Positions 39,041-58,813 are shown, counted from the first letter of the stretch. The stretch: 64,000 nt of DNA from Candidatus Zhuqueibacterota bacterium (GCA_049322915.1 JBMOPW010000013.1:10098-74097); one strand, 5' to 3'. Notes: a model not told the origin generated them from the letters alone. Numbers and translations are program-made.

Positions 39041-39928
39041 TCATGCGCCGGCCGGTTTCTCCTGCCCGCCTGGCTGGCCGGTGTCCTCCTGTCCATAGAC
39101 CTGCACCGGAAACGGTCGTGACATAGATCCGGCGTACAGCGACAGATGCCTGAATGCGATTTCGATGTTCTCTTTTTCAAAACGGTTTTTGATATCTTCG
39201 GCGATGCTGTTTTTCAATTTCAGCCAGTTGGATTTCTCGGCCCAGACCCAGAGGATGAGTTCGTACGACGAGTCGCCGAACTCGTTGAAATATACAAATG
39301 GCTCCGGCTCTTTCAGACACAGCGCATTTTTATCGGCGACATCGAGGAGCGCCTGGCGCACGCGGCCGATGTTTTCGCGGTAGACAATGTTGAGATTGAT
39401 ATCCACGCGCCGGATGGGAAAATGCGTCATGTTGATGACATCCGTTTTGATGATGGTTTCGTTGGGAATGCGGATGTACTGGTTGTCGAACGTCCGCAAT
39501 TTCACCGAGAGAAAATCGATGGAGAGAACCACGCCGGTGTTGGTTCCCACGGTGATGATATCGTTCACTTCGAAAGGCTTTTCAGCCAGCAGAAAAAGAC
39601 CGCTGATGATGTTGGAAACACTGGTTTGCGATGCAAAGCCGATGGCCAGCGTGGCGATGCCTGCTGCGCCCAACAGCGTTGTCAATTCGAATCCGACTTC
39701 GCGCAGGGCCGAGAACAGGATGAAGGCGATGCCGGTGTAGAGCACGAATTTGCCCAAAATCATGCTTTGCTGCGCTGAAAATTTTTTGACTGAATATTTC
39801 TTAACTGTCCGGCTGAGAAAGAACACGATGGGGAGACCAATGATCAATACCAGCGCCAATCTCACGATGGATTCAATTTTCGCGGCTGTGAAAAACGTGG
39901 CGAAACTGAAGGTATTCAAAAAGTCCAT
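39041..39928 (-). CDS. Small-conductance mechanosensitive channel (MscS family)
   Basis: GAAG...AIGFASQ..SN..SG, KPF, RIPN, FGDSS. Confidence 0.92.
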   Translation of the reverse strand: MDFLNTFSFATFFTAAKIESIVRLALVLIIGLPIVFFLSRTVKKYSVKKFSAQQSMILGKFVLYTGIAFILFSALREVGFELTTLLGAAGIATLAIGFASQTSVSNIISGLFLLAEKPFEVNDIITVGTNTGVVLSIDFLSVKLRTFDNQYIRIPNETIIKTDVINMTHFPIRRVDINLNIVYRENIGRVRQALLDVADKNALCLKEPEPFVYFNEFGDSSYELILWVWAEKSNWLKLKNSIAEDIKNRFEKENIEIAFRHLSLYAGSMSRPFPVQVYGQEDTGQPGGQEKPAGA

Positions 39929-40782: not shown

Positions 40783-41358
40783 TTAACCCTCCGGCGTAAT
40801 TCTCCGGTAGATTTCCTTCGAATTCACCGGGACGAAACTCTTGCTCACAAAGCTAATGTTCTCGATGGTATAAAACGCCTGGGGATTATAATCTTTTATG
40901 ATATTGACAATCTTTTGAATATTCTTCCGTTTAATAATGGTGAAAATAATTTTCACTCTGCCGGTCACCCCTTCCGCATCCACATTGGTGACGGTGTAGC
41001 CATCGGATTTCAATCGCTCCACCAATTCATCGGCTTCCATCCGCGTGATGACTCGGATCATGACCATTCCCATGGCAATTTTATTTTCGATGAAAATGCC
41101 CACGAAATTGCCGAACGAGAAGCCCAGGGCAAAGGCGATGAAATTGGCCGGGTTATCCAGATTTTTCATCACCTGGGTGATGGCCAGCAGCCAAATATTC
41201 ACTTCAATGAAACCAAGCAGCGGCGCCAGCAGCTTCATATTCTTGGCAAGAAATATGATGCGAATCGTGCTGATTGTGACATTCAAAATCATCGCCAGGA
41301 AAATCAACAGCGGCGTGACGAACCAAATATCCAACATTGAACTCATTGACATCTCCAC
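40783..41358 (-). CDS. DUF5698/DUF2179 membrane protein (paralog 1)
   Basis: TM domain with GFIEV.IW and GF..G..G...E.K.A.G, C-terminal G.T...AEG..G domain. Confidence 0.85.
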   Translation of the reverse strand: MEMSMSSMLDIWFVTPLLIFLAMILNVTISTIRIIFLAKNMKLLAPLLGFIEVNIWLLAITQVMKNLDNPANFIAFALGFSFGNFVGIFIENKIAMGMVMIRVITRMEADELVERLKSDGYTVTNVDAEGVTGRVKIIFTIIKRKNIQKIVNIIKDYNPQAFYTIENISFVSKSFVPVNSKEIYRRITPEG

Positions 41359-41546: not shown

Positions 41547-42611
41547 TCAGCGAAGGCTGAATCCCAGACCGGGAGCGTCATGGGGATAGAGCGTACCATC
41601 TTTGAGAATCACAGCGCCGGCAGCCGGATCGTCCACGAGATCAAAATGGCCATCCAGGTCAGCGCAGACCACATTGGGCCGGGCCAGCGCAAAGTGCAAG
41701 CCGGCAGCAATGGCCAGCGCGGACTCATCCATGCAGCCGACCATGCTGGTCATCCCGGCCGCGCGCGCCACACTATCGACGTGCTGCGCCTCGGAAATTC
41801 CGCCCACTTTCATGAGTTTGATATTGATCATCGCCGCCCGCCTCCGGCACGCCAGGTCAAGCGCATCGCGCACCGTCATCAGACTCTCATCCGCCATGAT
41901 CGGGACCGGTGAGGCTTCAGTGACCTGGCCCAGCAGCGCTGGATTTTCCCGGGCCGTGGGTTGTTCAATGAACTCCAAACCCGTTGACTGAGTTGCCGTT
42001 GCAAACAGGACGGCCTGTTCCACCGAAAAGCCCTGATTGGCATCGAACCGAAGTCCCACCTGCCGGCCAACGACCTCGCGCACCCGAAGGACGCGCTCAA
42101 TATCTCGGTCCACGTCAATGCCGCCTTTTATCTTCAGGGACGTGAATCCACGGGCCACAAACTCCCCGGCTTTACTGACAGTCTCCGGCAGGGGCAAAAT
42201 GCCGATGGTGATGCTCGTCGGAATGCAGTCACGGAATCCGCCCAACATTTTCCAGACCGGCGCGCCGCAGGCTTTGCCCAGGAGATCGAACAGCGCCATA
42301 TCCATTGCCGCCAATGCCGACGGATGGCGCTCCATCGATGGCCTCAGCCGCCCGATGAGACTGGCGAACCGAAGCGGGTCCGCGCCGATGATCTGCGGCT
42401 TGACCACGTCGTCCATCACCTGCATGACTGTCGCTTCGGTCTCTCCGGTGACCTCCAAATCCGGAGCGGCGCAGCCAAATCCACAGAGGCCGGTATCGGT
42501 TTCAATTTTCAGAAAGACATTCACCGTCGAATCGATCGTTTCGTAGGCAATGGTGTAGGGTTCTGCCAGACGCATAGCCACCGGCCATGCTTCCACTCGT
42601 TGTATTTTCAT
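41547..42611 (-). CDS. Enolase-superfamily dipeptide epimerase / N-acyl-amino-acid racemase
   Basis: KIK, DANQ, EQP, DES, NIKLMK.GG, D.DG motifs. Confidence 0.9.
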   Translation of the reverse strand: MKIQRVEAWPVAMRLAEPYTIAYETIDSTVNVFLKIETDTGLCGFGCAAPDLEVTGETEATVMQVMDDVVKPQIIGADPLRFASLIGRLRPSMERHPSALAAMDMALFDLLGKACGAPVWKMLGGFRDCIPTSITIGILPLPETVSKAGEFVARGFTSLKIKGGIDVDRDIERVLRVREVVGRQVGLRFDANQGFSVEQAVLFATATQSTGLEFIEQPTARENPALLGQVTEASPVPIMADESLMTVRDALDLACRRRAAMINIKLMKVGGISEAQHVDSVARAAGMTSMVGCMDESALAIAAGLHFALARPNVVCADLDGHFDLVDDPAAGAVILKDGTLYPHDAPGLGFSLR

Positions 42612-42768
42612 CGCCCTGCCTCAAATGAAATGTTTATTTGGCCATCCTTTGATTGTCGGGGATACTCATTCCGGATGGTGCGCCTCGGCGACATTCGCGC
42701 CGGAAACATCTCCGGCGCGATCAGGCCTCATCTTTCCGGGTTCATGCTCCCTGCAGACAGGTCCCGGC

Positions 42769-43848
42769 CTACTTTTTCAAATACGTCTCGAGCGCGGCAA
42801 TCACCTTCCGGGGGCCATCCACAAGCACATCGCTGGCTACGCAGCCGGCGGCTTTTTCGATCTCCGCATAAATGGGAGCAAGGTCGTCTGGTTGCAACGA
42901 CTCATGATTGATGGTGATAGCGACGACCGGTTTCTCGGAGATAATTTCGATGGCCTTTATCTGTCTGTCCAGCGGATGAATGCGGTAGCCGGGAAAACCG
43001 TCGTAATCCACACGGGCTGGCGCGTGCTGCAATACCACGACATCAGGGCGGGCGGCCGCCAGAATTTCGTAGCCGCCGGGGTAAGCCGGATTCATCAGGC
43101 TGCCCTGGCCTTCGATGACAATGACGTCCGGTTTTTTATCGTTCCACGCCGACCACACGGCAAATTCGATTTCGCCGGAGACAAAATCATTGATGAGCGA
43201 ATCCAGAATGAGCGAGTATTGCGCGCCCTGCATCCAGGCGGTCTGTCCAGTCCCGACCATTTCCGCAGTGTAGCCGGCGGCCCGAAATCCTTCCACCAGA
43301 ATCCACGCTGTCGTCCGTTTGCCAATGGCGGAATCGGTGCCCAGCACAGCGATTTTCAACGATGTGACCTGTTCGATCCGGCCATCGAAGAAATGCAATT
43401 TGTCCCGCGTCGGTGTTTTTCGAACATCGCGGAGTGTGATTCGATGCTTAACCGCCAATCCGGAAATTTCAGGATCATCCGACAGAAAATCGTGGAGACC
43501 GCAATCGACATTCAGTCCCAGTTCAATCGCTCGTTTCACATCCTGACGCGCCCGTGGATTGAGCCTGCCGCCATCCGGGGCAAGGCCAATGACCAGATGG
43601 GTGGCGCGGCGCTGCTGACGGGCGGCGTGTTCAACGGCCTCGGCTACATCGCCAATGATGGGTATATTTTTCGGCGCGCCGTCCAGCACCAGGCCAGCGT
43701 CTTTGCCGGCATAGGTGGAATCGACCACTGATAGCACCGAATAGCGGGCCGTCTTTCGAACCAGCCCGTGCGCCGTTTTGCCATTGGGCGTATTAAACGC
43801 ATCCTGACAATAGACAATGGCATTTCCTTCCGGAAAATTTTTCATCAT
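42769..43848 (-). CDS. DUF1611 family protein (DgcN-like)
   Basis: GKTAHGL, GTD.AIGKRTT, GTGQT, IEGQGSL. Confidence 0.9.
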   Translation of the reverse strand: MMKNFPEGNAIVYCQDAFNTPNGKTAHGLVRKTARYSVLSVVDSTYAGKDAGLVLDGAPKNIPIIGDVAEAVEHAARQQRRATHLVIGLAPDGGRLNPRARQDVKRAIELGLNVDCGLHDFLSDDPEISGLAVKHRITLRDVRKTPTRDKLHFFDGRIEQVTSLKIAVLGTDSAIGKRTTAWILVEGFRAAGYTAEMVGTGQTAWMQGAQYSLILDSLINDFVSGEIEFAVWSAWNDKKPDVIVIEGQGSLMNPAYPGGYEILAAARPDVVVLQHAPARVDYDGFPGYRIHPLDRQIKAIEIISEKPVVAITINHESLQPDDLAPIYAEIEKAAGCVASDVLVDGPRKVIAALETYLKK

Positions 43849-44053
43849 TCAACTCCGTCTCAAAAAATAAGCCCGTCTGATTCTTCCCGACCGCACGTGT
43901 GCCAGTGGAAACGACCTCCTTCGCCACCTCCGGCCTCAGCTATTTGAATTGGCAATGTAATTGATTTATTTATAAATTTCAAGTCAATTTCTAAAATGAA
44001 TAGTCTTGTACAAGCGTGTATAAAAAATTCAACACGCTAATGTATCGGCAGCA

Positions 44054-44069
44054 GACGGTCGCGACCGTC
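44054..44069. repeat. REP-like perfect palindrome
   Basis: GACGGTCGCGACCGTC. Confidence 0.55.
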
Positions 44070-44125
44070 CTCTCCGCCTATGTCCAATAATAATCTATCG
44101 AAGTAGACTTCCAAACAAATCATAG

Positions 44126-44162
44126 AACGCAGATGACACTGATTACACGGATTTGCACGGAT
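44126..44162 (+). repeat. Short tandem ~9-nt repeat
   Basis: AACGCAGAT GACACTGAT TACACGGAT TTGCACGGAT. Confidence 0.55.
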
Positions 44163-44337
44163 AAATTTTTTTTAAGTTAATAAACTGAAAAAATTTTCCT
44201 TCAAGTTGATTTCAAATTTTCCAGAAAATCGAGAACAAAATTCACGGTTTTCGGGTAGTAAAAATTTAGCCGACCGTAATTCTGTAAAATGGGTCCCGTA
44301 ACGGGTAATTTAAAATCAGGATCAGAGGCGCAGGTTG

Positions 44338-44485
44338 GTAACCGTTCACAGGTTCATTGTTCAGGGTTCAAGGTTAATGATAACGGCCAGTTGATGACGG
44401 ACTATTTGAGCTCAAAAAATGTTTCTGGTGACTATATCCAAAACCCCAGCAGGGAACGCTGAACCCGGAACCTATGAACGGCTAC
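44338..44485. repeat. 148-bp MITE-like element with terminal inverted repeats
   Basis: GTAACCGTTCACAGGTTC ... GAACCTATGAACGGCTAC (16/18 inverted match) with internal GGTTCA heptamers. Confidence 0.7.
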
Positions 44486-44969
44486 GCAAGTTGAGGCGAC
44501 ATCTTTTGCAGGACACAGGAAAGGCAATCCAGAGTATTGCAGCGAATCGCCTAATCCAAACAGAACAATCGGAGTTGCCTTGTCGAATTCAGGAAGGCAT
44601 CGGAGCAGCAGCGATCCGAAAACAGAATTGCGATGACGATTCTCGTTTCGAAAAAATGAAAATGGAAGAGCGGAAAGATCCTCAGCTCTTCCATTTTGAA
44701 AGCGTGTTCGCCCGAATCACAAAATACGACCAGGGCGGCCTGGCAGTCGCTCTGAAAATTGAGCGCAATGGCCACATTCCCGGCTTGATTCCTAAAGTCA
44801 GGGAGAAGTTCCCGGCGCATCACGCCCATCGCTGATACAACGCCGCCACCGGGATATGCTGAAATGCACATCAAAGCAGATTCGGGCACCCGGGCAATCA
44901 TTCTGCTGGACAGGGGTGAATTCGACGTCCTTGTCCAGCGCCAAGGTATTCGTCATTTCTGAACCGGAA

Positions 44970-46112
44970 TTACATCATCAGTGATTCATCAAACTCGAAG
45001 CAGGGTGTTTTCTCTTCACTTTCAACAATCTGCGGCACTAATTTTTCAGGTTTGGGATGTTTGCCATTCCTATTTTTCGTCTGCGCGTATCGATAAATTT
45101 TCCCTTTGTAATTCCGCAACACCACTTCTTCATCCGTGATTCTGACGACATATTCGGGCAGCAAGGGAATCTTGCCACCGCCGCCGGGGGAGTCGATCAC
45201 AAAGTGCGGCACAGCCAAGCCAGACGTCCAGCCCCGAATGGCTTTGATGATCTCCAGCCCTTTCTCGACGCGGGTTCGGAAATGTTCGGTCCCATAAACA
45301 TAATCGGCCTGGTAAATATAATAAGGACGAACGCGCGCCAACAGCAGCTTTTGCATCAATTTTTTCATGACTTCCGGGTCATCGTTTACACCTTTCAGCA
45401 GCACGGTCTGGCAGCCAAGCGGAATGCCGGCATCGACCAATTTCCCCAGAGCCTTGACGGCAATCGGCGTCAATTCATCCGGATGATTGAAGTGAACGTT
45501 CATGTAAAGAGGGTGATATTTCTTGAGCATGTTGGTTAATTTTGTGGTAATCCTTTGTGGGAGGAAACAAGGGACACGTGTCCCAATGCGGATAATTTGG
45601 ACATGTGGGATACGCCTGAGCTTGTGAAGGATATACCGTAACCAATCATCGCTCAATAATAATGGGTCGCCTCCGGACATAATGACGTCTCGAATTTCAG
45701 GATGCTGCTCAATATACTCGATCCCTTCATCAATAAACTTCGGGCTAATTTTGCTCGGATCGCCTACTTTTCGCTTACGGGTACAGAAACGACAGAACGA
45801 TGCACAATCATGGGAAACTAAAAATAAACAACGATCGGGATAACGGTGAACAATGCTTTTCACCGGGGAGTCTCTATCCTCGGACAATGGGTCAAATGAC
45901 AGTCCATCATTGTCCAGCTCTTTCAAATCAGGAACAACCTGTTTATAAATCGGATCGCCTTTCGCTTTAATCAGCGACAGGTAATACGGATTAATTTTTA
46001 TATCAAATTCATGCTGTATCTTTTCTACTTCGGCTAAAGGTATATCGAATCTCTCTGAAATCTCTTTAGCGCTGGTCAAACTTTTTTGCAGAATCTTCTG
46101 CCAGGTTTCCAT
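44970..46112 (-). CDS. kamA: KamA family radical SAM/PLP enzyme (lysine 2,3-aminomutase type)
   Basis: VHRYPDR, CASFCRFCTRKR, SGGDPL, HFNHP.E, YQAD, DSPGGGGK. Confidence 0.92.
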   Translation of the reverse strand: METWQKILQKSLTSAKEISERFDIPLAEVEKIQHEFDIKINPYYLSLIKAKGDPIYKQVVPDLKELDNDGLSFDPLSEDRDSPVKSIVHRYPDRCLFLVSHDCASFCRFCTRKRKVGDPSKISPKFIDEGIEYIEQHPEIRDVIMSGGDPLLLSDDWLRYILHKLRRIPHVQIIRIGTRVPCFLPQRITTKLTNMLKKYHPLYMNVHFNHPDELTPIAVKALGKLVDAGIPLGCQTVLLKGVNDDPEVMKKLMQKLLLARVRPYYIYQADYVYGTEHFRTRVEKGLEIIKAIRGWTSGLAVPHFVIDSPGGGGKIPLLPEYVVRITDEEVVLRNYKGKIYRYAQTKNRNGKHPKPEKLVPQIVESEEKTPCFEFDESLMM

Positions 46113-46200
46113 GGTAAAAACATACCTCCTACGTGTTTGTTATGGTTGTTAATTTGAACAGATGCGACAGGTCCTCATCCAATGGAGCGTGCCACATGTG

Positions 46201-46677
46201 TTATAAACGTTTCACAAAAATCAAGCGATCATCGCCGATTCGATAAAAGTCCTTAATGCGGGCTTCCACGACATATCGGTTTCGAAGGTAAAAATCCTGT
46301 GTTGGTTTGTATTTCGGTTGAGATGACGTTTCAATAATGATCATACGGCCTTTGAGGCGTACAACTTCTTGCTCCGTGAAAATCAATAATTTTTTTCCAA
46401 CCCCTTGATGCTGCACCACTGGTGAAACCGCGATCCAGTATAAATCAAATGTGCCTTCAGTGGCAGGTGTGGGGCCGTAACATACGTATCCAACAACCTC
46501 CTTCCGTGCATCTTCTGCAACGTAAATGATATAATCCTTTTGATTTTTGTTATTTAAAAAAATATCAACCAATTCCATCGCAACGGCGACTTCTTCTTCA
46601 GTGAACATGTCCGTGTGAACGAGAATCTGATGCACCGCCTCTCTATCCTGAGACGCCATTTTTCTAATCGTTACCAT
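46201..46677 (-). CDS. GNAT family N-acetyltransferase
   Basis: DLYWIAV, QHQGVGKKL acetyl-CoA motif, FY...Y. Confidence 0.92.
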   Translation of the reverse strand: MVTIRKMASQDREAVHQILVHTDMFTEEEVAVAMELVDIFLNNKNQKDYIIYVAEDARKEVVGYVCYGPTPATEGTFDLYWIAVSPVVQHQGVGKKLLIFTEQEVVRLKGRMIIIETSSQPKYKPTQDFYLRNRYVVEARIKDFYRIGDDRLIFVKRL

Positions 46678-47710
46678 TCCATTTCCTTTTCAATGCTTCG
46701 TGAATCAACAGATCGACAAACGATTCGTAACTAATTCCAGCAGCAGTCAATGCTTTGACATAACCCGCATCCGGCGAGATGTCCGGATTGGGATTGTATT
46801 CCAGCACAAAAATATTTTCATCATCATCGACGCGGGTATCGACGCGACCATAATCCCGGCCATTGATCGTCTGATACACTTGCAGCGCTACATCTTCGAG
46901 TCGTGCCCGGAGACTGTCGCTTATCTGAGCCGGACAAATCGCTGGCGTCTTTTGATAGAGCGGATGATCGGGCAGCCATTTGGCTTCGTAACTTGTGATA
47001 TGAGGCGTCTCCTCACCCAGCGCCGCAAAACTGATCTCAGAAATGGCGATGACTCGCGCCGGACCATTCCCCAATACGCTGACATTGAATTCCCGGCCCT
47101 GAATGTACTGCTCCACCAGAATGGGCTGGTTGTATTTTTTCAACAACGCTGTGACTCGCTTTTTCAACCCATTCAAATCATGAATAATCGCATCGCCATG
47201 CGTAATGCCCAGACTGGCATCCTCCCGTGACGGCTTTGCAATCAGCGGATACGAAAGTATTGTATCGCGGGGTGCTTCGGAATAGACCTGAAACTTTGGG
47301 GTTGGTATGTTCCTGGCTTCGAACAACTGCTTTGTGAGCACCTTGTCCTGCGCCAGCCCTAATGTCAACGGAGAATTTCCGGTATAGGGGATTTCTAACA
47401 ATTCCCATACACCTGCAATAAACATCTCGAAGCGAGCTTTGCCCTGGTAACCTTCGCATAAATTAAAAATCAGGTCTGGGGAAACCTGATTTATCTCCTG
47501 GAAAATCTGGTCAAGGCTTTTAACCGGAAAGGAAATAGGTACGTGGCCGGATTCCAGGACAACTCGCTGAACAATTTCTGCTTCGTCCTTCACCGCAGCT
47601 TCAGAAATAAAATCCAAATCCTGATCCGCCTTTTGAATCGGCTCATTATAGGCAATAAGAATATTCAATTTCTTCGAATCAGACTTCATGTTATTCATCG
47701 GACGAGTCAT
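46664..47710 (-). CDS. D-Ala-D-Ala-ligase-like ATP-grasp protein B
   Basis: FNLCEG, PYTG, KP.REDASLGI, EQYI.GREF, RVD.R, EYNPNPD. Confidence 0.88.
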   Translation of the reverse strand: MTRPMNNMKSDSKKLNILIAYNEPIQKADQDLDFISEAAVKDEAEIVQRVVLESGHVPISFPVKSLDQIFQEINQVSPDLIFNLCEGYQGKARFEMFIAGVWELLEIPYTGNSPLTLGLAQDKVLTKQLFEARNIPTPKFQVYSEAPRDTILSYPLIAKPSREDASLGITHGDAIIHDLNGLKKRVTALLKKYNQPILVEQYIQGREFNVSVLGNGPARVIAISEISFAALGEETPHITSYEAKWLPDHPLYQKTPAICPAQISDSLRARLEDVALQVYQTINGRDYGRVDTRVDDDENIFVLEYNPNPDISPDAGYVKALTAAGISYESFVDLLIHEALKRKWNGND

Positions 47711-47745
47711 CGCAAAAATTAATTTTTGCTCCTCATATTTAAAAA

Positions 47746-48783
47746 TTAAATACCATACCTTTTTCTGGCAAACTCAATGACCTTATTGATCATTGCGGTG
47801 TAACTATAGCCTTTGGTTCGGGCCGCCTTGGGGAAACAGGAATTATCTTCCGGATTAGGCAAAATCCCCGGCAGCGGATTCAGCTCCAGGATGTGCGCCA
47901 CACCCTGATCATCCATACGGATGTCAATTCGGCACCAGTCCCTGATATGCATCACGCGGTAGGTATCCCGCACGACATCTTCGATATTTCGCTGCTGTAA
48001 ATAGGTCAATGGCGCCGGGCATTTAAATATTTCAAGCGGCTTATCCGGCGTGTCCCAGATCCATTTTGCTTCATACGAATAAATCGGCCGAGCGCCTTCA
48101 GGCAGGTCGTCATAACTGATCGCGACGATGGGCAGCACGTCGACCTCTTTTCCATTGCCCCAGATGGCCACCGTATATTCATCTTTTTCTAAAAATTTCT
48201 CGATCATCACCGGTTCATTGTATCTGGCGAGGATCTCTTCAATCTTCTTCCTCGCCTGCTTCGGGTCTTCCACTACCGAGTCATTGAAAATTCCTTTGCT
48301 GCTTCCCTCGGCAATGGGCTTGACAATCGCTGGAAAATAAAAATCATTCAACTCAATTTTTTGGAGTGGATGCAGCACCCGAAAAGGCGGTGTGGGAATC
48401 GAATGGTAATTGAGTATTTCTTTGGTTCGGGCCTTATTCAGACAAATAGCCAGCGTCAAAGGATCCGATCCGGTGTACGGCAGTCCCAATCGCTCGCAAA
48501 CCAGAGGGATGTACGACTCGCGAAAGTCGCCAAATAAACCTTCGGCTATATTGAACACCAGCTCCGGCCGAAGATTTTCCAGGGTGGCTGGCGCTGTATC
48601 ATCCGCTTCAACGCTGAAAACTTCGTGCCCACCGCTTCGTATCGCATCCAACACCGAATTGATCGTGTCTACGCTATCACCCTCTGCGAAAAAATCAGGC
48701 GGAATATCCGTGGTCTTTTGATAATGCTTTTCATATTCTTTGAGTAATCCAGTTTTGCTGCTGTACGCAACTGCTATTTTCAT
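47746..48783 (-). CDS. D-Ala-D-Ala-ligase-like ATP-grasp protein A
   Basis: FNIAEG, PYTGS, KP.AEGSSKGI, YSYEAKW, RIDIR, ELNPLPG. Confidence 0.88.
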   Translation of the reverse strand: MKIAVAYSSKTGLLKEYEKHYQKTTDIPPDFFAEGDSVDTINSVLDAIRSGGHEVFSVEADDTAPATLENLRPELVFNIAEGLFGDFRESYIPLVCERLGLPYTGSDPLTLAICLNKARTKEILNYHSIPTPPFRVLHPLQKIELNDFYFPAIVKPIAEGSSKGIFNDSVVEDPKQARKKIEEILARYNEPVMIEKFLEKDEYTVAIWGNGKEVDVLPIVAISYDDLPEGARPIYSYEAKWIWDTPDKPLEIFKCPAPLTYLQQRNIEDVVRDTYRVMHIRDWCRIDIRMDDQGVAHILELNPLPGILPNPEDNSCFPKAARTKGYSYTAMINKVIEFARKRYGI

Positions 48784-48920
48784 AGTCACAATCTCAAATT
48801 CAAACCATCGTGAGCTAATATAAAAAAATCTCTAACGCATAGAGATGTCCCTGGAAACATGTACACCGGATTCTGATTTCAAAACAATATTCACTGTTTA
48901 TAAAAAATTGAACATGAATT

Positions 48921-48937
48921 TGGCAATAATTATGCCA
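48921..48937 (-). promoter_or_regulatory. sigma54 (-24/-12) promoter
   Basis: TGGCAT-AATTA-TTGC on the minus strand, upstream of the ATP-grasp/GNAT/KamA operon. Confidence 0.8.
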
Positions 48938-49002
48938 CAATTTTCAAGTGCTAATTTTTCAATGAAGTAAGTCGGTTTTAATGATAATGCCAATTCTAAA
49001 AG

Positions 49003-49073
49003 CGAACTGACAATTCCGATTTTGGGGGATGAAGCCGAAAAATAGGGGCAGGAAATTGGAATTTAAAATTCCG
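49003..49073. promoter_or_regulatory. Two candidate enhancer (UAS) sites for the adjacent sigma54 activator
   Basis: CGAACTGACAATTCCG (49003) and GGAATTTAAAATTCCG (49058), 12/16 identical, quasi-palindromic. Confidence 0.55.
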
Positions 49074-49074
49074 A

Positions 49075-50475
49075 TTATTTAAAATCTTCTTTCAGGATTC
49101 CGTAGCGATGCATCAGTTTATTCAATTGCCTCTCTCCAATCCCGGCTTCTTTGGCGGTGAGATTGATTTTTCCATGATGCCGGGTGAGGAGGTCGATTAT
49201 ATATTGTTTCTCCACCCGGTCGATTTCGCGCTGCCGAACCTGTGTCAAAGTCAATGTGCTTTCAGCAGCCATCACTTTGCTCTTCTTCTTGCCATTTTTG
49301 AATAGCTCAGCCGGGAAGCTTTTCGGCATCAGAATAGAGGACGACTCCAAAATATAGGCGCGCTCGATTAAATTTTCCAGTTCCCGGATATTGCCGGGCC
49401 AGGCGTAACATTGAAACGCCTCCAGCACATCGGGATGAACGTCGTTGATGTGCTTGGCATTGGCTTTATTGAGTCGCTTCAAAAAATTTTCGACCAGGAT
49501 GGGAATATCTTCAATCCGCTGCTCAAGCCGTGGCAGTTCGATGGGGAAAACATTGAGCCGATAAAACAGATCGTTTCTGAAGGTGCTCAATTCGACCATT
49601 TTCTGCAAATCGGAATTTGTGGCCGCCAGAATTCGGACGTCGGCTTTGATGACATTCTCTCCGCCCACTCGCTGAAATGTCCTATCCTGCAACACCTGCA
49701 GGAGCGCAATTTGCATCGAGGAGGAGATGGTGCCGATCTCATCCAGAAAAATGGTCCCGCCATGGGCTATTTCAAACTTGCCAAGCTTGCGTCGGATCGC
49801 TCCGGTGAAAGCGCCTTTCTCGTGGCCAAACAGCTCGCTCTCCAGCAATGACTCGATAATGCCGCCGCAATGAACGCTGATGTATTGCTTCTCACTGCGC
49901 TTGCTGTGCTGATGCAACAATCCGGCAATGACGCTTTTGCCTGTTCCTGTTTCGCCTGTGATCAATACTGTGCTTTCGGTCGGAGCGACCGCCCGAATTT
50001 TTGAAAATACTTCTTTCATCAGCGGGCTGTTGGAACGAAGCACGGATAAATACTCGCTGCGCCAGAACCGATCGCGCAGATAATTGAGCTCGGAATTCAT
50101 GCGCGAGTATTCCTGAAGGCTATCCACGATGTATTTGATCTCATCTGGATTGAGGGGGTACATCAGGTAATTGCTGGCGCCGGCCTTCACGGCATTGACC
50201 GTGTCGCGAACCATTTGCGGCGTTGAGAGCACGATAATATCCACATCCGAGGTGCCTCGCCAGAATGGCAAAAACTGGACTTTGTAGTCCACGTCGCTCT
50301 TCGAGTTCTTCAATATCTCGATATCAATGAAAAGAAACTCATATCGCTTTTTAGAAAATAATTCTTCGCCGGCCTCAAGTGTCTGCGCGTAATCGATTTT
50401 ATATCCGGATTCAAAACATTTCTGGATAGTCTCCACTGCTTCCTGATTTGTTGTGGTGACGAGTATACTTTTCAT
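49075..50475 (-). CDS. sigma54-dependent transcriptional activator (REC-AAA+-HTH)
   Basis: GETGTGKS, ESELFGHEKGAFTGA, FLDEI, WPGNIRELEN, C-terminal HTH. Confidence 0.95.
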   Translation of the reverse strand: MKSILVTTTNQEAVETIQKCFESGYKIDYAQTLEAGEELFSKKRYEFLFIDIEILKNSKSDVDYKVQFLPFWRGTSDVDIIVLSTPQMVRDTVNAVKAGASNYLMYPLNPDEIKYIVDSLQEYSRMNSELNYLRDRFWRSEYLSVLRSNSPLMKEVFSKIRAVAPTESTVLITGETGTGKSVIAGLLHQHSKRSEKQYISVHCGGIIESLLESELFGHEKGAFTGAIRRKLGKFEIAHGGTIFLDEIGTISSSMQIALLQVLQDRTFQRVGGENVIKADVRILAATNSDLQKMVELSTFRNDLFYRLNVFPIELPRLEQRIEDIPILVENFLKRLNKANAKHINDVHPDVLEAFQCYAWPGNIRELENLIERAYILESSSILMPKSFPAELFKNGKKKSKVMAAESTLTLTQVRQREIDRVEKQYIIDLLTRHHGKINLTAKEAGIGERQLNKLMHRYGILKEDFK

Positions 50476-50476
50476 C

Positions 50477-51391
50477 TCAGCCTTTGATTTTGTGTTGGAC
50501 ATAATCAACAATATGGTTCACAATATGATTAACCACGGGTTCCGGCACACCATCCCGGTGGCTCGATTTCAATCGCATGTCGCAGATTTCGTTCACATAA
50601 TCAATCACAATAAATTTCCCATATTGATCGACTGCGATTTCAGTGGAAAAAAAGTTCAACTTGATTATCCTGGATATTTGCTCAACAATATGGAAGAGAC
50701 TCTCCAACTGATACATTCTTACGGACTCCTGGCTCAGGACTTCGTAGATGTGGGTTGAATCATCCCACCAACAGCACTCGATATATCCGCAGCAATAGAA
50801 CACCCGAAACCAGAATCGTTTCTCATCCTTTTCGACCGGGTTTACCTTTTCCTGCAGCAGATATTTATCGGTCTCGTAGACCTGTCTGGCAATGAGAACG
50901 TCGTGCAGCGTCTCAGCGCCATTGACCACACCGATACCGCCGCCGGTGGTATTTGCTGGTTTAATGATGAACGGCCGCCCCAGATTTGCCAGATCTGCGA
51001 TGGATAATAAGACGTTTTTCGTTTTATTGAATGGCGGAATGATGATGGTGTGCGGCGTGACCAATCCATGTGCGATAAATTCCAAATGCATGGTCGCCTT
51101 ATCAGACGCCCACTTCAATTGTTCCCATGAATCCAATACCGGCACGTGGTGATTCAGCATCAGTGTGTGGAGCTCCAGGAATTCCGTGGACGAATCAGAA
51201 CCCCGATCATAAAAGAAGTGAAACTGCACCTCTCCCTTGCGAACTCGCTCAATGGTCTCCTGAAGATTAAACGCCTCCACCAGAAAGGTTGTCATGTTAT
51301 ATTTTTCATGGGCTGCGCGTTCAATCATGTGAATAAATTCTTTGTCATATTCCCAGTCGGTTGCCACACAAAAATCATAACACTGCGTCAT
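50477..51391 (-). CDS. ATP-grasp fold protein of unknown function
   Basis: DKA, PFIIKPA..GGGIGV, LLQEKV, FFSTEIA, IDYVN. Confidence 0.7.
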   Translation of the reverse strand: MTQCYDFCVATDWEYDKEFIHMIERAAHEKYNMTTFLVEAFNLQETIERVRKGEVQFHFFYDRGSDSSTEFLELHTLMLNHHVPVLDSWEQLKWASDKATMHLEFIAHGLVTPHTIIIPPFNKTKNVLLSIADLANLGRPFIIKPANTTGGGIGVVNGAETLHDVLIARQVYETDKYLLQEKVNPVEKDEKRFWFRVFYCCGYIECCWWDDSTHIYEVLSQESVRMYQLESLFHIVEQISRIIKLNFFSTEIAVDQYGKFIVIDYVNEICDMRLKSSHRDGVPEPVVNHIVNHIVDYVQHKIKG

Positions 51392-51686
51392 TCTTCACCT
51401 GTAGCTTTCTCCCCTCTGCTTTCCGTAAGGCATTTCCTTTGCATGATTTATTCATCACCGCAGAACCGCGTTCGCCTCCGCAATAAAATGAACTCCTCCT
51501 GAATCTTCGAACATTGAGTCTGTTTCAAAAGGGACAGTCGTGAACATGATATCGGACTGATAACCGCTGGAATGGTCCGAGTGCAATTCTGATTTTTCAT
51601 TGATTTTTCTAACACGGCGGATAATAACATGCGCCATCCTTTTTTTTGCCGGACGTTCTTGCAGTGTTTTCAGTGAGGCCGGGCGC

Positions 51687-52754
51687 CTAAAGCCATCGCT
51701 TTCTCTGAAAGTAGAGCAGCATGATTCCGGCGATGATGGCCATAATCAGCACAATAAGCGGATAACCCATGTGCCACTTCAATTCTGGCATGAAATTAAA
51801 ATTCATCCCATAGATGCCAGCGATAAATGTGAGCGGAATGAAGATCGTGGAAATAATCGTCAGCACTTTCATAATTTCATTCATTCGGTTGCTGTTCACA
51901 GAAAGGTACATTTCCAGCAGCCCGGCTGCAATATCCCGATAACTCTCAATTGTATCAATGGCCTGAATCGTATGGTCGTAAACATCCCGGAAGTAGGGGA
52001 TGGTTGTTGTATGAAACAATTTGGATTCTGACCGTTCCAGCCCGCCAACAACTTCTCTCAATGGCCAGATGGACTTGCGCAACGATATTAGTTTTCGCTT
52101 CAACGTATGAATACTGTGCAATGTCTCGGACGTGGGCTGCTCCACCAGCTCTGCCTCCAACACCTCGATGTAATCGCCAAGCTTTTCCAGGATGACGAAA
52201 TAATTGTCTACCACCGCGTCGATCAGGGAATAGGCTAAATAATCGGATTTGCTCTGCCGAATGCGCGAATGGCCAACCCGTATCCTCTCGCGCACTGGAT
52301 CGAACTCATCGCCTTCCCGCTCCTGAAACGTGATGACAAAATCTTTACCCACGATCAGACTGAGTTGCTCGTCGATAATTTCATTTCTAAGCTCGTCGTA
52401 CAGCAACATTTTCAGCACGACGTACATGTAAGTACCGAGGTCCTCGAATTTCGGGCGCTGACCGGTATGAAGAATGTCTTCCAGGATGAGCGGATGGATT
52501 TCAAATTTTTTCCCGAGTTTGTCCACAATGCTGACATCGTGGAGGCCATCGATGTTGATCCATGTCAGACTGGGCTTTTCATGATACGGGTAACAGTCCT
52601 CTACGCGCTCGACTTCCTTTTCCTCGAGATTCGTTTCATCGAAATCGAAAACAGAAATACGGGTCTTCTCGGTCTTTTTTTCGCCCACGTGGATGAGCGT
52701 CCCCGGCGGAAGTCCCACTTTTCGGGACGCTTCTTTCATGTATCTCGTTGCCAT
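51687..52754 (-). CDS. corA: Magnesium/cobalt transporter CorA
   Basis: GLPPGTL, QRPK, YGMNF..MPEL. Confidence 0.95.
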   Translation of the reverse strand: MATRYMKEASRKVGLPPGTLIHVGEKKTEKTRISVFDFDETNLEEKEVERVEDCYPYHEKPSLTWINIDGLHDVSIVDKLGKKFEIHPLILEDILHTGQRPKFEDLGTYMYVVLKMLLYDELRNEIIDEQLSLIVGKDFVITFQEREGDEFDPVRERIRVGHSRIRQSKSDYLAYSLIDAVVDNYFVILEKLGDYIEVLEAELVEQPTSETLHSIHTLKRKLISLRKSIWPLREVVGGLERSESKLFHTTTIPYFRDVYDHTIQAIDTIESYRDIAAGLLEMYLSVNSNRMNEIMKVLTIISTIFIPLTFIAGIYGMNFNFMPELKWHMGYPLIVLIMAIIAGIMLLYFQRKRWL

Positions 52755-52879
52755 ACGTCTCCAATTTGATGGCAATACTGATTCGGGTGAATTCTGTCAA
52801 TGCTCTGTCCGCACGACGCTCGCATGAATATTCAATTGTGACAAGCGGCGAATGAACCTGGCGGCGCCGAATAATGGCT

Positions 52880-55256: not shown

Positions 55257-55853
55257 TCATTTGCCGTTCTTTTCAAATTTCAATTGACTCCAAAACCTGA
55301 GCCGATTTTTTTCACTGGTCAAAGGAAAGACTGTCTCCCGCGCCATTCGCACGTCTTCCACGGAATAGAACGCATTGGGACTGAATCGATTCACCATGCC
55401 CAGGACGGTCTGAAGTTCTTTCCGTTGTATCACCGTGAAAATAATTTTGACGACGCCGGTCAATCCCTCGCCATTCACGATAGTCACGCCATAGCCTGCT
55501 TTTTTCATGGCGGCAATTAATTCGCTCGCATCCCGGCGCGTAATGATGCGCACAACCTGAATGCCAATGGCCAGCTTCTGCTCCAGCGACATCCCGATGT
55601 AACTGCCGGTAGCAAATCCCCCGGCATAGGCCAGATAGCACAACGAGTTATTGAGATTATTGAATATCTGCCGAATTGCCAGCAGCCAGATGAGCACTTC
55701 GACGAATCCCAGACAGGAAGCCAGTCTCCTTTTTCCGCGCGAAACGTACATGATTCGGAGCGTGCCCATGGATACATCGATAATTCGCGCAGAAAAAATG
55801 AGCATCGGGAGAACCACCCAATTGAAAACGGTCGAGTCCATTAATAAATCCAC
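55257..55853 (-). CDS. DUF5698/DUF2179 membrane protein (paralog 2)
   Basis: IF.ARI.DVS.GTLR, GFVEV.IW, GYGVT..GEG..G. Confidence 0.88.
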   Translation of the reverse strand: MDLLMDSTVFNWVVLPMLIFSARIIDVSMGTLRIMYVSRGKRRLASCLGFVEVLIWLLAIRQIFNNLNNSLCYLAYAGGFATGSYIGMSLEQKLAIGIQVVRIITRRDASELIAAMKKAGYGVTIVNGEGLTGVVKIIFTVIQRKELQTVLGMVNRFSPNAFYSVEDVRMARETVFPLTSEKNRLRFWSQLKFEKNGK

Positions 55854-55983: not shown

Positions 55984-56349
55984 TTATTCTTCTTTGAGAA
56001 CTTTGAATTCACGCACTGAAATGATGAAAACCCCATCGTCATCCTTCACGACGATGCCGGTTGCCAGGACGTCCCGCCCGACAAAGTTCGTCAATTCCTT
56101 GCCTTTCTTGTTTTCAGTAACCAGATAATCGATGACGTATTCCTCCTCTGTGGTGTCCCCGGGAATGACCGTCACGGAGATGGCGATGGAAATGACGTTA
56201 TCATTCTCATCCCACTCCGTCCCGATGACCATCCCCTCGATGGTCGTCTCCTTCGCTTTTTCCTGGCTATAGACATCGCTGGACAGGATGGCCAATGCCA
56301 GCAGCGTAACACTCAAAAGCCCGACTAAGTAACTGCACTGTGTTTTCAT
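55984..56349 (-). CDS. Small secreted acidic protein, probable OB-fold
   Basis: Signal peptide; beta-rich with L..FVG..V.ATG.V pattern. Confidence 0.6.
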   Translation of the reverse strand: MKTQCSYLVGLLSVTLLALAILSSDVYSQEKAKETTIEGMVIGTEWDENDNVISIAISVTVIPGDTTEEEYVIDYLVTENKKGKELTNFVGRDVLATGIVVKDDDGVFIISVREFKVLKEE

Positions 56350-56986: not shown

Positions 56987-58813
56987 CTATTCCAGGTAAT
57001 CGGAAAATTGCTTCCTGAAATCCCTTTCGATGAAGATGTCCCACCATAGCGTTAACAGCAACAAGTTCAAGAGTTGATTTCCCCGAATCTGATCGAACCA
57101 GAACCAGTAACTCCCTTTGTCGGACGACGCGTCGAACGCCTCGAAAAATGCATTCAGGAATTTCGGATTGAACATGGCGCGGGCGGCCTCGGACTCCCTG
57201 ATGTACTGAAATAATTTATGACGCAGCGCGTTATCCGCGAACATAACGCCCAGAGGTGCAAATCCCCCCTGTTTCTTTCGGCCCGACACTTCCGCCGGCA
57301 GTTTTGATTTCACGGTCTTCTTGAGCAAAAATTTGCTCACGCCGCGCCCCTGCATCAGTTCTTTCAGCGAGCCCTTTGTCTTCAACTGGCGCGGCAGTCG
57401 CGTCAGGAACCGATACATTTCCAGATCCATGTACGGGAACGTCAATGGCACACCGTGCAATTCCGACATGCGCGCTGCTTTGTACAGAATGGCCTCATTG
57501 GCGATTGTCCGGATATCGATGTAAAAATTCCGCAGATTGTACAGCTCATCAAAATTGTGATACTTCCTCCAGCCGTTGGCATCGTCCTTCATCTTCAGAT
57601 TGAGCAGTTGTCCGATGTGCTGCTGGGAAAATCCAAAATTTTCCCGGTCGAGCACGTCCAGAATGGCGCGATTATGGAAGCGGAACCGGAACAGCACATT
57701 ATCTTGCTGGAAAAAAGACAGATGAGACAGCGACTGCGCCATCCTCTGCACCAACTGGAAACCATATTTTCTGCCCAGGAAATGCAGGGCGATCTGCTGC
57801 GATGCTGTCCCAAAGAGCTGGTCATTGCCATCGCCGCCCATGACTACCGGCAGCGTGGGATCCACAGATTTCATGGCCATATAATTGATGAAAAATCCCT
57901 GTTCCGCGAACGGTTCACCAAAATGTCGTACAATTTCCGGCAGGTAATCAATCTCAGAACCATCCAGAAGATAGGCATTGAATTCAGCGTCGAAGGTCTC
58001 CGCCATTTTCTTGGCAAATGGCAATTCCGACCAGGGATTATCCCTGAAGCCGATGGAATAGCTTTTGATTTTTCCACCGTAAACATCGCGCAGCGCGGCA
58101 ATGACTCCGCCGGAATCATACCCGCCGCTCAGCAAAACTCCGACTGTCGAATGGTCTTTGATGCGCCGTTGAATCGCCCGGTGCAGCAGCGATATGTATT
58201 GCTCCGCAGCCTCGTCCTCGGAGATGGCCATTTTCTGCTGGTTGAAATCGCTGTAATCGAACAGCGAATCGACCGTGATGGTCTTATCCCGATAAATGAG
58301 AACACCGCCCGGGCTGAGTTTTCTGACTCCCTGAAAAATCGTCCCCGGGGAAATGACAAAACAGCCGTACAGAAACGACGACGCTGCATCCATATCAATT
58401 TTCGGGCTGAATGACTGGAATGCCTGCAACTCGTCCATCGAACTGGCAAAGTACTCGTTGGTGAAAAAGAATCGCGGGCCAATGCCGTTCTTGTCCCGCA
58501 GAACATACATGCTCGATCCGTCCGAAATAATCACCAGAAATTTTCCATCGACCTGTTTGAAGCCATCCAACCCTTTGGTCAGAAACAGGCGCAGCAACAG
58601 TTTCTCAGTGGGTACGCCGGGGGATGCCAGTGCTTTCTCCAAATCCGGCGCGTTGTAAATTTCGCCCCAGAAGAACAATTCGGCCGAATCTTTATTTGCA
58701 AAGCAGCAGTTGTTAGCCAGGATATTTCCTCTGGATTGGCTGAATGCGTCCGGCTGGTTCACCGATCCAGCCACATCACGATGCCTGTCGAAATGGCCAA
58801 TAAATGAATTCAC
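56987..58813 (-). CDS. Asparagine-synthase-like amidotransferase/amide ligase
   Basis: RD..G, LSGGYDSG PP-loop, GDG.DQLFG, FPY.D, RKKQG; no N-terminal Cys. Confidence 0.85.
   Translation of the reverse strand: MNSFIGHFDRHRDVAGSVNQPDAFSQSRGNILANNCCFANKDSAELFFWGEIYNAPDLEKALASPGVPTEKLLLRLFLTKGLDGFKQVDGKFLVIISDGSSMYVLRDKNGIGPRFFFTNEYFASSMDELQAFQSFSPKIDMDAASSFLYGCFVISPGTIFQGVRKLSPGGVLIYRDKTITVDSLFDYSDFNQQKMAISEDEAAEQYISLLHRAIQRRIKDHSTVGVLLSGGYDSGGVIAALRDVYGGKIKSYSIGFRDNPWSELPFAKKMAETFDAEFNAYLLDGSEIDYLPEIVRHFGEPFAEQGFFINYMAMKSVDPTLPVVMGGDGNDQLFGTASQQIALHFLGRKYGFQLVQRMAQSLSHLSFFQQDNVLFRFRFHNRAILDVLDRENFGFSQQHIGQLLNLKMKDDANGWRKYHNFDELYNLRNFYIDIRTIANEAILYKAARMSELHGVPLTFPYMDLEMYRFLTRLPRQLKTKGSLKELMQGRGVSKFLLKKTVKSKLPAEVSGRKKQGGFAPLGVMFADNALRHKLFQYIRESEAARAMFNPKFLNAFFEAFDASSDKGSYWFWFDQIRGNQLLNLLLLTLWWDIFIERDFRKQFSDYLE

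Follow-up and report, generated by a model that had tools for sequence, protein, structure and literature searches.

The 64,000-nucleotide stretch of DNA analysed here (the window; Candidatus Zhuqueibacterota bacterium, GCA_049322915.1, JBMOPW010000013.1:10098-74097) contains four genes, ligA, ligB, a GNAT acetyltransferase gene and kamA, that run head-to-tail on the minus strand from 48789 to 44970 (Table 1). LigA and LigB are ATP-grasp proteins of the D-alanine--D-alanine ligase (Ddl) family, and KamA belongs to a family of radical S-adenosylmethionine (SAM) aminomutases that carry pyridoxal phosphate (PLP). They represent one instance of a widespread cassette that is so far uncharacterised. 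With a probability of roughly 0.6, this cassette serves to make a small N-acetylated amide or peptide derived from beta-lysine, with LigA and LigB acting together as a heteromer.

Table 1. Position and strand of the cassette genes and of the features upstream of them in the window
Feature	Position	Strand	Description
KamA-family radical SAM/PLP aminomutase gene (kamA)	44970-46112	minus	380 aa; predicted lysine 2,3-aminomutase
GNAT gene	46201-46677	minus	158 aa; 5' end shares 14 nt with ligB 3' end
ligB	46664-47710	minus	348 aa; Ddl-family ATP-grasp ligase, clade B
ligA	47746-48789	minus	347 aa from GTG; Ddl-family ATP-grasp ligase, clade A
sigma54-type -24/-12 promoter, TGGCAT-N5-TTGC	48923-48937	minus	TGGCATAATTATTGC; GG-GC spacing 10 nt; 148 nt before GTG
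18-nt repeat, two copies 55 nt apart	49004-49021 and 49059-49076		one copy within palindrome; 67-140 nt upstream of -24
sigma54 enhancer-binding protein gene	49075-50511	minus	478 aa; directly upstream of ligA promoter
grasp3, third ATP-grasp ligase gene, no described family	50477-51391	minus	upstream of activator gene, 35-nt overlap

An earlier note on this DNA had described a -24/-12 promoter followed by two divergent ATP-grasp paralogs, a GNAT protein of 158 amino acids and KamA, and the reading of open reading frames (ORFs), Pfam domains and promoter confirms this content. As a unit, however, the four genes were drawn too small: the sigma54 activator gene and grasp3 accompany them, and in relatives a histidine kinase and a GNAT-deacetylase fusion protein do so as well. 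For ligA, the ATG at 48783 is a likelier start than the GTG, because the database copy and the homologues begin at residue 3. There is no convincing terminator after kamA. The plus-strand orf138 (44419-44835) belongs to no family and is unlike the ORF that occupies this position in L010, the cassette locus of the closest named relative, a KSB1 metagenome-assembled genome (MAG); it was kept out of the unit.

Distribution and gene order of the cassette

A scan of one genome per species gave at least 599 pattern matches, at least 534 of which encode a relative, and the best 80 loci were kept. The genes are colinear, in the order ligA-ligB-GNAT-KamA, in 68 of these loci, while four are cut by contig ends and eight have ligA-ligB-GNAT without an adjoining KamA gene. 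According to the record titles, the 80 loci come from Calditrichia, KSB1, Aminicenantes, Ignavibacteria/Bacteroidota, Lentisphaerae, Neomarinimicrobiota and Deltaproteobacteria, with some titles (e.g. Eubacteriales) taken as labelled. Identity to the window proteins is 49-68% for LigA and 56-84% for KamA across these loci.

Gene context was compared in 112 loci, namely the best 80 together with 20 ortholog loci and 12 distant loci from one sampled phylum (401 genomes from the phylum to which one of the deltaproteobacterial MAGs belongs). About one third of the genomes of the sampled phylum (123/401) encode a LigA relative (E <= 1e-40). Even where the ligases are only distant relatives (28-41% identity), a KamA gene adjoins them in 12/12 loci, with the gene orders KamA-ligA-ligB-GNAT or ligA-kinase-activator-KamA-ligB. 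Exactly two ligase genes are present in 110 of the 112 loci, and KamA in 87. Rooted on the Ddl of the window's genome, the ligase tree splits the cassette ligases into two anciently diverged clades, one with 117 members (support 0.75) and one, clade B, with 107 (support 0.99). Nearly all loci, 107 of 113 with the window counted, supply one ligase to either clade.

The genes are also found fused. In locus L150, a single ORF of 727 amino acids spans both the KamA and the LigA match, and in five other genomes of the sampled phylum the ligase match sits in an open frame of 747-754 amino acids, a length that fits a KamA-ligase fusion. The two ligases can be fused to each other as well, as in locus L154, where an ORF of 677 amino acids holds two ligase copies. 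Among 3382 candidates from a search of longer proteins, 568 are relatives at E <= 1e-30, with lengths of 609-2000 amino acids. The matches listed (120 of the 568) are about 670-810 amino acids long, contain ATP-grasp Pfam families only and include proteins of two named Anaeromyxobacter species. Judging from length and Pfam content, these relatives of about 700 amino acids are presumably fused double ligases.

Ligases and aminomutase also tend to occur in the same genomes. In the sampled phylum, a KamA-family gene (E <= 1e-40) is found in 118 of 123 ligase-positive but only 157 of 278 ligase-negative genomes (odds ratio 18), a contrast that overstates the case because the genomes are related, and hence not independent, and many of them are incomplete. 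Of ten genomes with a cassette that lacks an adjoining KamA gene, nine have a KamA of the lysine 2,3-aminomutase type elsewhere (motifs YQCD and (V/I)DAPGGGGK).

Closer to the window, the distribution is patchy. A match is present in 20 of 41 related genomes (the window's genome counted) and in 6 of 13 of the same family, and the sole other genome of the same genus, which is 94% complete, has no match. The cassette, the activator gene, grasp3 and part of corA lie within a stretch of low G+C content (44000-52000), with 45-46.5% G+C at 44-52 kb against 51-56% in the flanks. Patchy presence among relatives and the low-G+C island together suggest that the cassette is an accessory trait that moves between lineages. 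A role as a defence system was rejected, since PADLOC gave zero matches for the six proteins submitted.

The ligases, the aminomutase and the acetyltransferase

LigA and LigB match the Pfam family PF07478 (1.4e-30 and 3.1e-31, respectively) and are 33% identical to each other. With their best NCBIfam Ddl model they score 172.9 and 147.4 against a cut-off of 243, and both stay under every Ddl cut-off. The true Ddl of the window's genome (232.8 bits) is encoded on a separate contig. Compared with this protein, both ligase clades retain the ATP- and magnesium-binding residues of Ddl (KP, EAK, R.D and E.N), but the N-terminal GG.S.E.EVS loop is replaced in both. The earlier note had claimed that the ligases exchange the LHG..GEDG motif of Ddl for FNIAEG or FNLCEG. 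This is borne out by the alignment, in which ILHGPFGEDG of the genome's Ddl corresponds to FNIAEGLFGD in LigA and FNLCEGYQGK in LigB. Both clades have a Glu at the position of the motif's His. LigA in addition has an invariant acidic N-terminal motif, D..AE.DS..T, and retains a block with a Ser, NSC.PK, where the genome's Ddl reads ISMYPK; LigB reads AG there. Because of the Glu in place of the Ddl His and the acidic N-terminal motif of LigA, the ligase pockets may suit cationic substrates. The database label "D-alanine--D-alanine ligase" that these proteins carry is very probably wrong.

The AlphaFold2 (AF2) model of LigA has a predicted local distance difference test (pLDDT) score of 88.7. 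Among the PDB matches listed for it, all are Ddl or Van ligases, and the best is 1iow (TM-score 0.85 by target length, 28% identity). A model of the LigA and LigB complex scores 0.65, compared with 0.01 for the best of three controls; 58 of 80 solved complexes attain this mark, as do 2 of 110 mismatched pairs. Contacts agree between runs to at least 74%, and the partner pLDDT is at least 79. The predicted interface comprises residues of about 64-129 in LigA and 66-133 in LigB, which is also where the conserved motif block lies in the sequence. The score may reflect likeness to Ddl, because Ddl homodimers have been solved, and a heterodimer and two homodimers cannot be told apart by the model. 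The earlier note had offered two steps or a heterodimer as the mode of ligation. The second option is favoured by the co-occurring clades, the ligase-ligase fusions and the complex score relative to the controls.

KamA contains the Pfam domains Radical_SAM and LAM_C and passes the general aminomutase model TIGR00238 (290.3 against a cut-off of 199.2). It stays under the cut-offs of the glutamate and arginine aminomutase equivalogs in NCBIfam, as well as under that of the EpmB model (228.4 against 369.3). The protein aligns with the Clostridium lysine 2,3-aminomutase 2A5H (E 8e-112), and the cysteines of the CxxxCxxC cluster motif (C103, C107 and C110), the Arg that follows the third of them and the PLP lysine (K314) all match. 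In the same alignment, YQAD and VIDSPGGGGK of KamA stand opposite YQCD and VVDAPGGGGK, so that both Asp residues pointed out in the earlier note are indeed kept. We take these two residues (D293 and D330 of the Clostridium enzyme) to bind the epsilon-amine of lysine and to separate lysine from glutamate aminomutases. They are retained in 87 and 86, respectively, of 88 aligned cassette KamA proteins, the window included, and the cluster cysteines and the PLP lysine in at least 86 of the 88. The gene is the only KamA-family gene in the window's genome, and the cassette enzyme is predicted to be a lysine 2,3-aminomutase.

The acetyltransferase of the cassette matches PF13508 and PF00583. Its best NCBIfam match is RimI, at 32.8 bits far from the cut-off of 86.4, and it does not match the AblB model TIGR03827, in keeping with the earlier remark that it is much shorter than AblB (158 amino acids against 266 model positions). 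The closest solved chain is 2R7H (E 8e-36), a structural-genomics entry that supplies a solved structure for the family. The entry is named "putative D-alanine N-acetyltransferase of GNAT family", a name that was probably taken from mis-annotated ligase neighbours.

Promoter, activator and neighbouring genes

The promoter sequence TGGCATAATTATTGC differs from the 16-nt consensus TGGCACNNNNNTTGCW at two positions. Sites of equal quality number 14 in the whole window, both strands counted, so that about 0.03 chance sites are expected in the 310 nt searched. The GG and GC elements are 10 nt apart, the genome contains rpoN, and a gene for an AAA+ activator with a GAFTGA motif is adjacent. In the window's genome, the operon would thus be read from a sigma54 promoter and depend on the activator encoded just upstream. 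A near-identical promoter, TGGCATAATGATTGCT, is found upstream of the cassette in L010, and CTGGCATATAAATTGCAA occupies this place in locus L028. The two 18-nt repeats are candidate activator-binding sites, and similar palindromes of the form GGAAC-N5/6-GTTCC are readable upstream of the L010 promoter.

The activator combines PF00158 (1.1e-66), which includes the GAFTGA motif, with a Fis-type helix-turn-helix domain (HTH_8). Its receiver domain (Response_reg) scores 28.4, under the Pfam cut-off of 30.2, and looks degenerate, with ILVTTTNQ at the expected acidic pair. Homologues with 50-68% identity adjoin the cassette in loci L010, L012, L020, L025 and L028. No histidine kinase adjoins the activator gene in the window, whereas relatives have a PAS histidine kinase beside theirs: kinase and activator together accompany the cassette in Calditrichia and KSB1 loci and in four distant loci.

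The product of grasp3 has no Pfam match and only weak NCBIfam matches to RimK and LysX. Its AF2 model (pLDDT 91.7) has a generic ATP-grasp fold, with Ddl, ArgX, LysX and MdnB at TM-scores of 0.6-0.7. In 15 of the 112 loci, grasp3 is found no more than 5 kb from the cassette.

Two kinds of companion genes outside the window encode hydrolases. A GNAT-deacetylase fusion protein of about 580 amino acids follows KamA in 11 of the 112 loci. Its deacetylase part is closest to acetylpolyamine amidohydrolases (9gkz, E 3.5e-71), and its GNAT part has no BLASTP relationship to the cassette GNAT. Peptidase genes adjoin the cassette in L154 (S58 and C26), L155 (C26) and L028 (C69). S58 is the family of DmpA and has a beta-aminopeptidase role. 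A small, acetylated, cationic product would fit both the deacetylase fusion and the peptidases.

Several further genes were seen near the cassette. A protein of about 91 amino acids without a family is encoded by the first gene after the sigma54 promoter in L010 (7353-7628) and L028 (2704-2985) and also upstream of the cassette in L020 (1819-2097), L021, L025, L154 (two copies) and L155. The window has no such gene at that place; a relative 7 kb away (55984-56349, minus strand) starts with a hydrophobic, signal-peptide-like stretch. In L154 (6800-7903) and L155 (9876-10955), a 367-amino-acid protein without a family is encoded between the fused double ligase and the C26 peptidase. Downstream of the cassette in the window, at 41547-43848 on the minus strand, lie genes for a DUF1611 protein (DgcN-like, 138 bits) and for an enolase-superfamily protein closest to L-Ala-D/L-Glu epimerase (207.9 bits), both under cut-off. 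The same two genes, with overlapping ORFs, are found directly upstream of grasp3 in L010 (2273-4425). The pair was not counted as part of the cassette, as DUF1611 is present in L010 alone among the first 80 loci. The region is flanked by genes for two DUF5698/DUF2179 membrane paralogs (40783-41358 and 55257-55853, both minus strand; 42% identical). Within 10 kb there are also minus-strand genes for an asparagine-synthase-like amidotransferase (56987-58813), an MscS channel (39041-39928) and CorA (51687-52775), but relatives gave no sign that these are linked to the cassette.

Putative pathway, alternatives and significance

The chemistry proposed here is predicted from conserved residues and gene context. 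KamA would turn L-lysine into beta-lysine by radical SAM/PLP chemistry. The LigA/LigB heteromer would then turn carboxylates into acyl phosphates and create one or two amide bonds in which beta-lysine takes part, through either its carboxyl group or its amine. The small GNAT would N-acetylate a free amine of the substrate or of the product. The grasp3 protein, whose gene adjoins that of the activator, may attach one more residue, and in some lineages the product could be deacetylated and hydrolysed by the neighbouring enzymes. The core of this scheme, in which KamA makes beta-lysine, the ligases use it and the GNAT acetylates, was put forward in the earlier note. Comparative genomics supports it, through the colinear gene order, the fusion in L150, the co-occurrence of KamA with the ligases and the retention of both Asp residues.

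More tentatively, and with low confidence, the ligases may make a polycationic beta-lysine oligoamide or a beta-lysyl-polyamine conjugate, the charge of which would be tuned by the GNAT with or without the deacetylase that resembles acetylpolyamine amidohydrolases. The acidic residues of the ligases, the presence, in one phylum, of linked genes for arginine decarboxylase and agmatinase (see below) and the acetylpolyamine-type deacetylase as a neighbour are in line with such a product.

Several observations weigh against a beta-lysine amide as the product of the cassette, or against parts of the scheme. KamA scores 466.8 with the AblA equivalog model TIGR03820, under the cut-off of 525.4, and lysine as its substrate therefore rests on few residues. 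With the four contig-end-cut loci left out, 17 of the 112 loci hold ligases without an adjoining KamA, and 5 of the 123 ligase-positive genomes show no KamA; such cases may reflect incomplete MAGs or a different amine as the substrate of the ligases. KamA is in any case common in the sampled phylum (275/401). The peptidase neighbours are limited to three loci. A sigma54-like promoter lies less than 400 nt from ligA in only 8 of 111 loci, and none was detectable in the Calditrichia loci inspected; sigma54 control is thus not general and was rejected as a general feature of the cassette. Finally, in a Desulfobacterota-type block, the cassette is linked to genes of arginine decarboxylation, which would suggest agmatine or a polyamine as the substrate.

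This linkage speaks for the alternative in which the amine that the ligases conjugate is of the polyamine type (agmatine, putrescine or homospermidine), instead of or besides beta-lysine, to give acyl- or aminoacyl-polyamines subject to a cycle of acetylation and deacetylation. In the sampled phylum, a pyruvoyl arginine decarboxylase gene stands beside the cassette in 16 of 20 ortholog loci, mostly immediately upstream of the ligase genes. The block contains an arginase-family (agmatinase-type) gene in 9 of the 20 and a deoxyhypusine/homospermidine-synthase-like gene in some, and the affinity of the fused deacetylase to acetylpolyamine amidohydrolases fits as well. Yet the block also includes the unrelated pyrK and pyrD, as well as ribBA, so that part of the linkage is plain synteny. 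In 9 of the 20 loci, the cassette GNAT gene is followed by a methyltransferase gene, a second GNAT gene and then pyrK and pyrD. In the window's genome, the arginine decarboxylase and the deoxyhypusine-synthase-like genes are on another contig. The linkage to KamA is, moreover, far more general, in adjacent genes, in fusions and in shared presence across genomes. Polyamine conjugation thus appears unlikely to be what the cassette does, although the partner of beta-lysine may still be a polyamine in view of the arginine decarboxylase linkage.

It is less probable again that beta-lysine, or a peptide made from it, is ligated to a protein, in the manner of EpmA and EpmB acting on elongation factor P (EF-P) or of RimK acting on ribosomal protein S6, and that the GNAT acetylates that protein. 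A conserved cellular target would suit the ligase identity of 50-68% across the named phyla and the placement of the Ignavibacteria and Aminicenantes cassettes among housekeeping genes (RecG, DnaG, V-type ATPase), and RimI is the best NCBIfam match of the GNAT, though far under the cut-off. However, no conserved small target gene occurs within the cassette, and a small molecule is the better fit for the KamA-ligase fusion, the acetylpolyamine-type deacetylase and the neighbouring di- and aminopeptidases. For EF-P in particular, the only copy in the genome reads VKLSRGRA, with an Arg at what we take to be the equivalent of the modified Lys at the tip of loop I in E. coli EF-P. The best match to the EpmA model in the genome lies in a frame of 529 amino acids and scores 236.2 against a cut-off of 286.9; the earlier note had seen no efp or epmA nearby. 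As the sole KamA is also under the EpmB cut-off, beta-lysylation of EF-P is disfavoured.

KamA and an acetyltransferase are the known minimal route to N-acetyl-beta-lysine, and the two might make this compatible solute in the manner of AblA and AblB, with the ligases unrelated or accessory. The MscS and CorA genes within 7 kb would suit such a solute. Neither the search with the GNAT nor that of the whole genome (96% complete) revealed an AblB-family protein, however, and no part of the cassette is more constant than the ligases, which L150 has fused to KamA. The sample labels (groundwater, lake sediment and cave) are not suggestive of high salt, which is a weak argument. On balance, it seems improbable that N-acetyl-beta-lysine is the end product. 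As to lysine fermentation, no KamD was found in the genome, which is weak evidence because the control genomes were also silent.

It is highly improbable that the cassette is a cluster for a ribosomally synthesised and post-translationally modified peptide of the microviridin/graspetide kind (two ATP-grasp proteins and a GNAT) or encodes a variant pair of cell-wall D-Ala-D-X ligases. The gene content is superficially like mdnB/mdnC/mdnD, and Pfam assigns the ligases to Ddl. However, the window has no plausible precursor ORF ahead of ligA, downstream of the promoter, or within the cassette, whose genes are tightly packed; no macrocyclase is among the PDB matches listed for LigA, a separate true Ddl is encoded in the genome, the N-terminal and HG..GEDG motifs are replaced, and no mur genes are nearby. 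The bioactive peptide with self-protection and the cell-wall precursor that the earlier note had considered as products gain nothing from the data.

The preferred product, an acetylated amide or peptide of beta-lysine, can be compared with those of known systems. AblA and AblB, which make N-epsilon-acetyl-beta-lysine, occur in methanogens and green sulfur bacteria, and a kamA-yodP locus is present in B. subtilis and B. thuringiensis. The cassette resembles them in that a KamA-family lysine 2,3-aminomutase gene adjoins a GNAT gene, and differs in its two obligatory Ddl-type ligases, its non-AblB GNAT and a KamA that is under the AblA cut-off. Links between the aminomutase and sigma54 have precedents: the passages on kamA in PMC4428206 describe transcription of the B. 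thuringiensis gene from a sigma54 promoter with an activator of its own, KamR, and those in PMC12316311 link lysine 2,3-aminomutase to sigma54 in Bacilli. With Ddl and Van ligases, the cassette ligases share the fold, PF07478 and the catalytic Lys, Arg, Asp, Glu and Asn; they differ from them in scoring under the Ddl cut-offs, in the replaced D-Ala-site motifs and in forming an obligate A/B pair.

By description, the logic of the cassette is also that of PylB and PylC, where a radical SAM mutase converts lysine into an unusual diamino acid that a Ddl-like ATP-grasp ligase joins by an amide bond. PylB is of another radical SAM family, though, and the window cassette has no PylD but two ligases and a GNAT. 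Ngg and AsnO make the dipeptide osmolyte N-acetylglutaminylglutamine amide by means of a GNAT and an ATP-grasp domain, which are fused in one protein, and without an aminomutase. Again compared by description, the cassette shares the GNAT and ATP-grasp chemistry, but encodes the two activities in separate genes and adds the aminomutase.

In bacteria and archaea, beta-lysine has four known roles, as osmolyte precursor, fermentation intermediate, modifier of EF-P and antibiotic building block. The enzyme families of the cassette are known, but for their combination and product no literature description was found. A full-text literature search returned no description of the cassette, in agreement with the earlier note, which knew of no characterised product; the survey of ATP-grasp and GNAT amidoligases by Iyer et al. 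(2009) may mention the neighbourhood.

In at least several hundred species (at least 534 relatives in species-representative genomes), KamA is coupled with two Ddl-type ligases that form an obligate pair. The carriers are mostly uncultured, and the cultured Anaeromyxobacter species hold the presumed double ligases of about 700 amino acids. Identification of the product would reveal a new lysine-derived metabolite and probably a new type of heteromeric ATP-grasp ligase, and would correct a common mis-annotation as Ddl. The metabolism concerned is that of Aminicenantes, Ignavibacteria, Calditrichia, KSB1, and Desulfobacterota-type and Myxococcota-type bacteria. Should the product prove to be a polycationic beta-lysine compound, it would represent a previously unseen class of polyamine-like primary metabolites in many anaerobic phyla.

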